A stretch of 64,000 nucleotides of DNA from assembly GCF_003334405.1 (NCBI RefSeq), contig NZ_QOWM01000009.1, one strand, 5' to 3'. Position 1 is the stretch's first letter, and every line of letters begins with the position of its first letter. Position numbers: made by a program. The stretch comes from Escherichia coli (GTDB lineage: Bacteria > Pseudomonadota > Gammaproteobacteria > Enterobacterales > Enterobacteriaceae). Below, piece by piece: positions 44,901 through 47,900 of this stretch.

Positions 44901-47900
44901 TCAGCACCGCCATCACAATACCCAGCATATACAGCGAGAAGACCGCCAGCGCACCGTTCTGCCCGAAGAAGGCAGCCGCGAATACTGCGAAGATAGCCAG
45001 ACGCGCGCCGCAGGACATAAACGGTGCCATCATGATGGTCATCAGACGTTCACGCGGTGCATCAAGCGTACGTGCACCCATTACCGACGGTACGTTACAA
45101 CCGAAACCGACGATCAGCGGCACAAAGGATTTCCCCGGCAAGCCCAGCGCCTGCATCAGACGGTCCATCACAAACGCCGCACGCGCCATATACCCGGAGT
45201 CCTCAAGGAAGGAGAGGAACAGGTACATCATGCCAATCTGCGGCACCAGTGGCAGCACGGTGTTAATGCCGCCACCCAGGCCCTGGGCGAGGAAGATAGT
45301 CAGCCAGTCCGGGAAGTGGAGCGTGTAGCCAATCCATTGAATACCATGCACAAATAGCGCCACGGAGCCGACGTCAAACAGCGGCTGTAACGCCCCGCCG
45401 ATGTTGATAGCCAGCAGGAACATCAGGTACATCACAAAGAGGAAAATCGGCAGACCGAGGAAACGGTTGAGCACGATTTTATCTACCGCAGTGGTGAAAC
45501 GGCTGGGTTCTGCCGTCAGGGTGTTGCTTACCACATCACAGATGGCAGCAATGCACTGGTAACGCGCATCGGCAATGTGCAGCGCCGGATCGTCCATCTC
45601 ATTACGCAGACGGGCGAGGGCGGCATCCAGATGCTGCGACGCTTCACCGGCGTAGGCGCGGCTGTAGATATCGCCTTCCAGCATTTGCAGGCCCAGCCAG
45701 CGACGTTGTTTCAGCGGGATGTCGGAAGGCATCACTTTTGCCAGTGAATCTGCTTCGTTGAGCAGCGGCTGTGCGTAATGCACCAGTTCCACATTCTCGT
45801 TAGCTTTATAGCGATCAATCGCCAGCTTGAGCGCTTCAATACCGCGACCACGGGTTGAAACCAGCGGGATCACCGGACAGCCCAGACGCGCCGACAGAGC
45901 ATCAATTTCAATACGAATATTTTGCTTCTCGGCAATGTCGAGCATGTTCAGTGCCACAATGCAGGGAATGCCGAGTTCCAGCAGTTGTAGCGTCAGGTAC
46001 AGGTTACGCTCAAGGTTAGACGCATCCACCACGTTAATCAGCAGGTCGGCGTCGCCACTCAAAATGTAGTGACAGGCGATTTGCTCATCGAGCGAGGTCT
46101 GCGATGAGATGGTGGTCAGAGAATAGGTGCCGGGCAGGTCCACCAGCGTGACCTGATGATCGGTGGTGGAGAATTGCCCTTCTTTACGTTCGACGGTAAC
46201 GCCAGCCCAGTTACCTACACGCTGACGTGAGCCAGTGAGCTGGTTAAATAACGTTGTCTTGCCAGAATTTGGATTACCAATTAAGCCAATGGTTAATTTT
46301 TTCATTGTTGTTATCACCGTATTAACAGGAAACCGCTTCCACTTCTAATAAGGCCAGATCTTTTTTGCGTAATACCAGGCTCACACGACGGGTTTCGATA
46401 TGAATGGGGTCGCCGAGTGGAGCGACGCGCACCACATTAAAAGAGGAGCCAGGTAACATGCCAAGAGAAAGCAGTTTTTGGCGATATGCCGGGCTGATTT
46501 CACGGGAAAAGCCAGTGATTTTCCACGCAGTATCTGGAGTGTATTGCATAGGTGCCTACTTGTTTCTCATTAACTGGATAACTACCTCATGGGGCGTTTG
46601 ACAGCGACATGAGACCAGATGATTTGCCAACAAAGGAGAGATTAAATAATCAACAACACAATGATAATGAGAATGGTTTCTATCAGCAATACTTAAAATG
46701 TGTGCGAATGTTGGTTTGAATAATAATCTGACTCAATGTTGATGTGGCTCAAGGTTATATCGCAGCGAAAATATAATTCGAATAGTGAATTACCCGGACT
46801 GGCTAATGTTTAATTAAGGTTTCAGTTGTTAATGAAATGATAAATATTGCCGGAATATATTATGAGTTTGGCTGTGGAATAAAAATGCCGGAGATATTCT
46901 CCGGCACTTTTATGTCAGGCAAGGCGTTCGTTGCCAGATGCGGCGTGAACGCCTTATCTGCCCTACGATTTCGTGCAAATTCGAACCGTAGGCCAGTACG
47001 GGCGTTTAACGTTTTTTGCCCATTGCCGCCGCCAGCGCATCCATCATCGCGCTATTACCGGCAGGCTGCGCTTCACGACCGCGTGGTTTGGCTGCCGGGC
47101 GGTTGTTTTGCGGGCGTTCATTACCGCCGCCGCGACGAGCGTTGGTTTCGCCAGGCTGCTCATCCAGGCGCATAGTCAGGGCGATACGTTTACGCTGAAG
47201 ATCCACTTCCAGCACTTTCACCTTCACAATGTCGCCCGCTTTCACCACGGTATGCGGATCTTCCACAAACTTGTTCGACAATGAAGAGATGTGAACCAGG
47301 CCGTCCTGATGCACGCCAATATCGACAAACGCGCCAAAGTTGGTGACGTTGGTCACTGCGCCTTCGAGGATCATACCCGGTTGCAGGTCGTTCATTGTCT
47401 CGACGCCATCGGCAAACTGAGCGGTTTTAAATTCCGGACGCGGATCGCGACCCGGTTTTTCCAGCTCTTTGATGATGTCGGTTACCGTCGGCACACCGAA
47501 TTTCTCATCAGTAAAGTCAGACGCTTTCAGGTTACGCAGTTCGCTGCTGTTACCCATCAGATCTTTCAGTGCCTGCTGTGTTGCTGCCAGAATGCGTTCC
47601 ACCACCGGATAGGCTTCCGGGTGAACGGTAGACGCGTCCAGCGGGTTATCACCGTGGTTAATGCGCAAGAAGCCCGCGCACTGCTCGAAGGCTTTCGGCC
47701 CCAGACGGCTCACTTTTAACAGTTGCTGACGGTTCTGGAACTGACCGTTCTCATCGCGCCAGGCAACGATGTTTTGCGCCATCATGCGCGTCAGGCCCGC
47801 CACGCGGGTTAACAGCGGAACAGAAGCAGTGTTGAGATCGACGCCAACGGCGTTTACGCAGTCTTCTACTACTGCGTCCAGTTTGCGGGCCAGTTGCGTC

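Follow-up and report, generated by a model that had tools for sequence, protein, structure and literature searches.

The 456-bp gap between yhgF (tex) and feoA, at positions 46550-47005 of a 64,000-nucleotide stretch of Escherichia coli DNA (contig NZ_QOWM01000009.1, in the following termed the window), carries a Fur-binding site on the core promoter of feoA. A first-pass annotation of the window had flagged a string in this gap as resembling a Fur box; the flagged motif is a real Fur site that has already been mapped. The gap is 100% identical to that of E. coli K-12 MG1655 and was found in 5426 of the 5426 complete E. coli genomes searched. The window strain is E. coli K-12, and the gap constitutes the entire regulatory region of its feoABC ferrous-iron uptake operon. 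Since all genes of the locus are encoded on the minus strand, the gap has to be read on that strand. Its limits had been given exactly, from the tex stop codon to the feoA ATG. The flagged string reads tgataatgagaatggtttc at 46662-46680 (TAGAAACCATTCTCATTATCATTGTG in the direction of feoA); it is thus present as claimed, at a place 2-3 nt away from the 46659-46678 first quoted for it. The AT-rich stretch described around it was likewise recovered, with 32.6% GC at 46620-46880 vs 51.8% for the whole window. A Fur box together with an Fnr site upstream of feoA is said to have been reported first by Kammler, Schön and Hantke in 1993.

In vivo occupancy by Fur was taken from published chromatin immunoprecipitation data with exonuclease treatment (ChIP-exo). 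Gao et al. 2023 (PMC10164565) list for MG1655 a feoA peak (P104) at 3538047-3538080 in U00096.2 coordinates, detected under iron-replete conditions only. Positions in the window were converted to MG1655 (U00096.3) as 3586712 minus window position, and the offset of 1978 between U00096.2 and version 3 was calibrated on the FNR motif (3537982) and the ArcA motif (3537888-3537908), both of which we found in the window. After conversion the peak P104 lies at 46654-46687. For W3110 the same authors give the peak P164 at 4100359-4100371 of NC_007779.1; read directly from this record it corresponds to AACACAATGATAA at window positions 46655-46667. Both published peaks therefore overlap the flagged string, and occupancy of this string in vivo depends on iron.

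The start of transcription falls into the same block. In Mendoza-Vargas et al. 2009 the 5’ end of feoA is placed at -105 relative to the start codon, together with a -35 box gTATTGCTG and a -10 box ATTATCAT separated by a spacer of 17 nt. Placed on the sequence, the core promoter covers 46654-46689 on the minus strand, with the -35 element TTGCTG at 46689-46684, the -10 element TATCAT at 46666-46661 and the transcription start site (TSS), a G, at 46654 (MG1655 3540058). A TSS within 1 nt of this one follows from the ArcA site positions (-191 to -171) in Park et al. 2013. The Fur-binding array, which we delimit to 46657-46687 from consensus, hexamer and matrix scans, the ChIP-exo peaks and conservation, spans -33 to -3 and hence lies on the core promoter. 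Thus the published start and both Fur peaks are located at the block singled out in the first-pass annotation and not elsewhere in the gap. A functional effect of Fur has been described as well: deletion of fur raises the feoA and feoB transcripts as well as expression of feo::lacZ, synergistically with activated OmpR (Gerken 2020). Altogether, published data show that Fur, FNR and ArcA occupy the region in vivo and that OmpR binds it in vitro; the 5’ end and the dependence of feo expression on Fur are published as well.

We further analyzed how well the array can be recognized without such data. Compared to the 19-bp Fur consensus GATAATGATAATCATTATC, three registers exactly 6 bp apart match at 13 of 19 positions (46657-46675), 13 of 19 (46663-46681) and 12 of 19 (46669-46687). 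On the plus strand the hexamers CACAAT-GATAAT-GAGAAT are consecutive and in phase and score 15 of 18. In 2000 dinucleotide shuffles of the gap, three in-phase hexamers at 15/18 have a probability of P ~0.01 and three in-phase 19-mers of P ~0.006. If either the 19-bp consensus or at least three in-phase GATAAT hexamers are taken to define a Fur box, the array qualifies as a moderate match. The first-pass annotation had suggested a scan with a Fur position weight matrix (PWM) as a check. Such a matrix was derived by unseeded expectation maximization from ten other Fur-regulated intergenic regions (fepA-fes, fepD-entS, fepB-entC, fhuA, cirA, mntH, nrdH, nfeF-nfeR, fecA and ryhB), leaving out feo. 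This recovered the Fur motif CAAATGATAATGATTATTA with 17.1 bits. The best site of the gap is indeed the flagged one, TAGAAACCATTCTCATTAT at 46664-46682 on the minus strand, with 11.1 bits (P ~0.04 against shuffles of the gap); among all 127,964 positions in the window it ranks third. In a further register, shifted by 6 bp, the matrix gives 6.1 bits.

Conservation of the site was assessed in a set of 80 Enterobacteriaceae loci, each species with FeoA being represented by a single genome. The orthologous block TA(A/G)AAAC(C/T)ATTCTCATTAT is near-invariant and present in at least 76 of the 80 species. In 70 out of 76 it is the top PWM match of the 420 bases upstream of feoA, with a median of 11.9 bits. 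In an alignment of 18 genera conservation over the whole upstream region is highest in the 30-nt block at 46661-46690, and positions of the spacer not read by RNA polymerase (AAACCATTCTC) show the same invariance as the hexamers.

Several observations weigh against this reading of the block as the Fur site on the mapped feoA promoter. By sequence alone, it would be a plausible but weak to moderate Fur box: a single 13/19 match has a probability of P ~0.2 in the gap, and the 11.1 bits of the feo site compare to 13.5-26.6 bits for the training sites. A PfeoA-lacZ fusion in K-12 showed repression by Fur only in anaerobic growth, and only 6 of the 9 E. coli strains showed regulation of feoA by Fur, which has been classed as “accessory regulon”. 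Two sources underlie the TSS, one high-throughput 5’-end entry and the start used by Park et al., which stems from EcoCyc or from Kim et al. 2012. The TSS is absent from the Cappable-seq supplement examined, and the supplements of Kim 2012 hold no feoA entry; in both cases this is a null result and not a contradiction. In addition, the literature examined contained no Fur footprint obtained in vitro for the feo promoter of E. coli, and the ChIP-exo table is not error-free, the MG1655 ryhB peak P106 in it missing the known ryhB box. Finally, because the Fur array and the -35 and -10 elements overlap, conservation cannot separate constraint by Fur from constraint by RNA polymerase. Taken together, the modest PWM score, the missing Fur effect in 3 of the 9 strains, its restriction to anaerobic growth in K-12 and the position of both promoter elements inside the block could mean that the block is conserved merely as a core promoter, with weak or minor Fur occupancy and with feo being run by FNR, ArcA and OmpR. 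We regard this as very unlikely in view of an iron-dependent ChIP-exo peak in two K-12 strains, the increase of feo transcripts in the fur deletion with its synergy with OmpR activation, and the invariance of spacer positions not read by RNA polymerase.

Whereas the Fur site had been recognized in the first-pass annotation, the FNR, ArcA and OmpR sites, which are also published for this gap, had not been located there. The FNR site TTGAGCCACATCAA at 46739-46752 on the minus strand, listed with motif and ChIP-seq peak in the supplement of Myers 2013, matches TTGAT-N4-ATCAA at 9 of 10 positions and has a published PWM score of 14.6. Activation of feo by FNR is masked by Fur in iron-replete medium. 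The half-sites of the FNR motif are nearly invariant across the 18 genera, and 8-9 of their 10 positions match in 71 of 76 species. The centre of the site is located at -91.5 from the TSS and thus at neither of the standard activating positions, -41.5 (class II) and -61.5 (class I). As most FNR-activated promoters have FNR at -41.5, one may think of a second, FNR-dependent class II promoter starting near 46704, about 41.5 bp past the FNR centre, on which Fur would act as a downstream roadblock; a parallel two-promoter model has been proposed for feoABC of Yersinia pestis. This arrangement is improbable, and a class II FNR promoter near 46704 is unlikely: the sequence at 46716-46711 (AACCAA) is not -10-like, the stretch is not conserved and no 5’ end has been reported near 46704. 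Furthermore, measured from start to start, the FNR motif and the promoter block are 69-70 bp apart in 73 of the 76 species, and this constancy speaks for FNR being functionally linked to the mapped promoter. With its centre at -91.5, the only arrangement that the FNR site fits is a distal one resembling class I.

The spacing is kept even in the group of Enterobacter, Lelliottia and Leclercia, in which about 70 nt of the leader are gone. This fixed FNR spacing is the sole feature not obviously covered by the literature examined. It may indicate that FNR is not a simple independent activator and works either through a class I-like contact made distally and in fixed phase or by aiding RNA polymerase against Fur, a suggestion we make tentatively and consider doubtful.

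Further upstream, the ArcA site TTGTTAATGAAATGATAAATA at 46826-46846 on the plus strand (approximately -192 to -172 from the TSS) is documented by a ChIP peak and a motif in the supplement of Park 2013, and feoABC is directly activated by ArcA. It is overlapped by the OmpR motif TTATCAtttcaTTAACA at 46843-46827 on the minus strand; a fragment with this motif is shifted by OmpR in an electrophoretic mobility shift assay (Gerken 2020). The block containing the ArcA and OmpR sites is conserved across the 18 genera as well. A putative RstA/OmpR-like motif CCAACAttcgCACACA described in the same study lies at 46699-46714 on the minus strand (-60 to -45); when this motif alone was present on the fragment, OmpR gave no shift in vitro. 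At this motif a block ACATTCCGTCACATTTTAA is partly conserved in the 18-genus alignment. Shimada 2014 lists H-NS at the feo region, and the table of Myers names NagC and Fur as known feo regulators. Next to the published ArcA site we noticed a conserved flank CTTAATTAAACATTA (in the direction of feoA) at approximately 46806-46825. Repeats resembling TGTTTA occur in it, in a phase of roughly 11 bp relative to the direct repeats of the ArcA site, and the flank may represent additional ArcA repeat elements.

A second match to the Fur consensus (12/19) at 46833-46851 lies over the ArcA/OmpR site; that Fur acts there or elsewhere in the gap, the flagged string being a chance AT-rich match as the P value of a single 13/19 register might suggest, is extremely improbable, as this second match stays below 4 bits on the PWM, has no ChIP-exo peak listed and both listed peaks fall on 46654-46687.

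The control of feoA is thus very probably exerted by a Fur array on the core promoter of a single sigma-70 promoter, with upstream activation by FNR, ArcA and OmpR. In the mechanism we propose, the degenerate REP element and the strong intrinsic terminator that follow the end of tex would insulate the feo region, with some 230 bp of AT-rich promoter region beyond the terminator. The sigma-70 promoter (TTGCTG/TATCAT) would start the RNA at 46654, 105 nt ahead of the feoA ATG. Fe2+-Fur would polymerize on the hexamer array at 46657-46687 over -35, spacer and -10 and exclude RNA polymerase; we infer this classical repression by steric occlusion, as well as the mode of FNR action from its position at -91.5. 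Activation would come from FNR (-91.5), from ArcA (approximately -192 to -172) and from OmpR at the site overlapping that of ArcA. As a result of occlusion by Fur combined with these activators, feo would be induced when oxygen is absent and expressed less under iron sufficiency.

Compared with the literature on the E. coli feoABC promoter no difference was found: the sequence is the same, and the published Fur, FNR, ArcA and OmpR sites as well as the TSS are all located inside the gap. Site, start point and regulators have thus been published for this exact sequence, and it holds no new biology. The feo array resembles the Fur boxes of fhuA, fepA-fes, fepB-entC, cirA and ryhB in that GATAAT-like hexamers are arrayed over -35 and -10 and are bound by Fe2+-Fur only under iron-replete conditions. 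In contrast to these classical boxes it is weaker (11.1 vs 13.5-26.6 bits) and is joined by the anaerobic activators FNR and ArcA and by OmpR. Due to this combination repression by Fur depends on the conditions. The feo element also shares the run GATAATGAGAAT with what we take to be the primary Fur site of the aerobactin (iucA) promoter P1; the second half-site there is presumably CATTATT, which fits the consensus, whereas feo has GGTTTCT. In Yersinia pestis feoABC, as in E. coli, a Fur site covers the proximal -35 and -10 and a long upstream region carries candidate Fnr and ArcA motifs. The Y. pestis region differs in that it has no significant DNA similarity to that of E. coli, two promoters have been proposed and, according to the authors, aerobic repression by iron is lacking. 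When placed in Y. pestis, the E. coli feo promoter is iron-repressed. feoABC can be considered a textbook promoter at which the iron signal (through Fur) is joined to that of oxygen (through FNR and ArcA), with an envelope or osmotic input via OmpR. A weak Fur box that the PWM ranks only moderately was here called correctly before any of the published data were consulted.

According to the open reading frame (ORF) list and the MG1655 annotation, both flanking genes lie on the minus strand, the tex coding sequence (b3407) at 47006-49327 with its stop codon TAA at 47008-47006, and that of feoA at 46322-46549 with its ATG at 46549. feoB (46317-43984) follows feoA and is itself followed by feoC, both on the minus strand. 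The repetitive extragenic palindromic (REP) element that the first-pass annotation had placed in the gap was found as the degenerate copy GCCAGATGCGGCGTGAACGCCTTATCTGCCCTAC at 46933-46966 on the plus strand, with 3 mismatches to the classical REP consensus. It is extragenic, located just past the tex stop, and 0 such matches are expected by chance according to shuffles. A partial inverted REP arm detected as inverted repeat at 46984-47006 overlaps the tex stop. The window holds two cleaner REPs outside the gap.

The predicted terminator hairpin for tex was recovered by terminator scan, inverted repeat search and RNA folding at 46878-46906 on the minus strand. It consists of a 9-bp GC-rich stem (46906-46886) followed by UUUUUAUU at 46885-46878. 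Folded as RNA of the tex strand it reaches -25.9 kcal/mol compared to -8.6 +/- 2.3 in shuffles (z = -7.4). With a GC-rich hairpin and a U-run it has the features of a Rho-independent terminator and is predicted to act as such. An A-tract on one side of the hairpin and a T-tract on the other (46878-46913) make it look bidirectional; a convergent gene using the other direction is not present. Scanning the gap against Rfam gave no family at gathering score, and the weak matches reflect the REP and the terminator, among them a sub-threshold match to the REP-derived naRNA4 at 46926-46963 over the same bases as the REP. ORFs in the gap are short on both strands and have no supporting features. A promoter-like match on the plus strand (46832-46861) was discarded as being at chance level (1 found, 1.3 expected).

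Together with RyhB, feoA had been proposed to give two Fur-controlled loci in the window, and these two are indeed the only loci in the window with iron-replete-only Fur peaks in the MG1655 table. The Rfam covariance model identifies RyhB (RF00057) at 5724-5788 with 83.1 bits (threshold 55), and box and RNA together cover 5669-5788 on the plus strand. The ryhB Fur box at 5669-5692 matches the consensus at 16 of 19 positions (5674-5692) and scores 25.6 bits on the PWM, of which it is itself a training site. The W3110 control peak at ryhB corresponds to TGAGAATGATTAT at 5673-5685, on the Fur box. The MG1655 “ryhB” peak P106 (3579165-3579195) converts to 5538-5568, at the 5’ end of yhhY and about 110-130 bp away from the box. 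As it failed as a coordinate control, the W3110 peaks, taken from the record itself, served this purpose instead. We noticed that gene labels around rows P37-P50 of the MG1655 sheet of Gao 2023 are shifted by one row; the published table does contain local errors.

Three further MG1655 Fur peaks are listed in the window, in the ompR-greB intergenic region, inside asd and near yhhZ (at approximately 49960-50000, 11890-11910 and 5130-5170, respectively). All of them are of the “R/S” class, whose peaks are found whether or not iron is present, and none has a PWM match of at least 9 bits. A match of 12.6 bits at 13493-13511 (TGATGATCCTTACCGTTTT) scores above the feo site, has no counterpart in the published MG1655 ChIP-exo data and is probably a false positive.

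The 5’ leader of feoA comprises 105 nt from TSS to ATG (46550-46654, minus strand) and contains a Shine-Dalgarno-like AAGTAGG at 46561-46555. No significant structure was found in the E. coli leader when compared to shuffles (z = +0.6). A conserved leader hairpin was considered, since the alignment suggested stems that differ between genera, and was rejected: RNAalifold predicted 0 pairs, the best local hairpin was better than shuffles in only 2 of 20 genera, and in close relatives single substitutions disrupt pairs and are not compensated. In a number of loci from Enterobacter, Lelliottia, Leclercia, Silvania and others (L049, L051, L057, L065, L069, L072, L078, L081, L082, L085-L088 and L090) the leader is only about 32-35 nt long, the central ~70 nt being gone while the promoter block and the Shine-Dalgarno sequence are kept. 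This part of the leader is therefore dispensable. The leader of Klebsiella indica (L080, positions 967-1200) is extended to 234 nt owing to an insertion of about 130 nt. This insertion (…GCAGCCAACGCATATGCAGCTTGAAGTATGACGGGCA…) resembles what we take to be an enterobacterial repetitive intergenic consensus (ERIC) or intergenic repeat unit (IRU) sequence.

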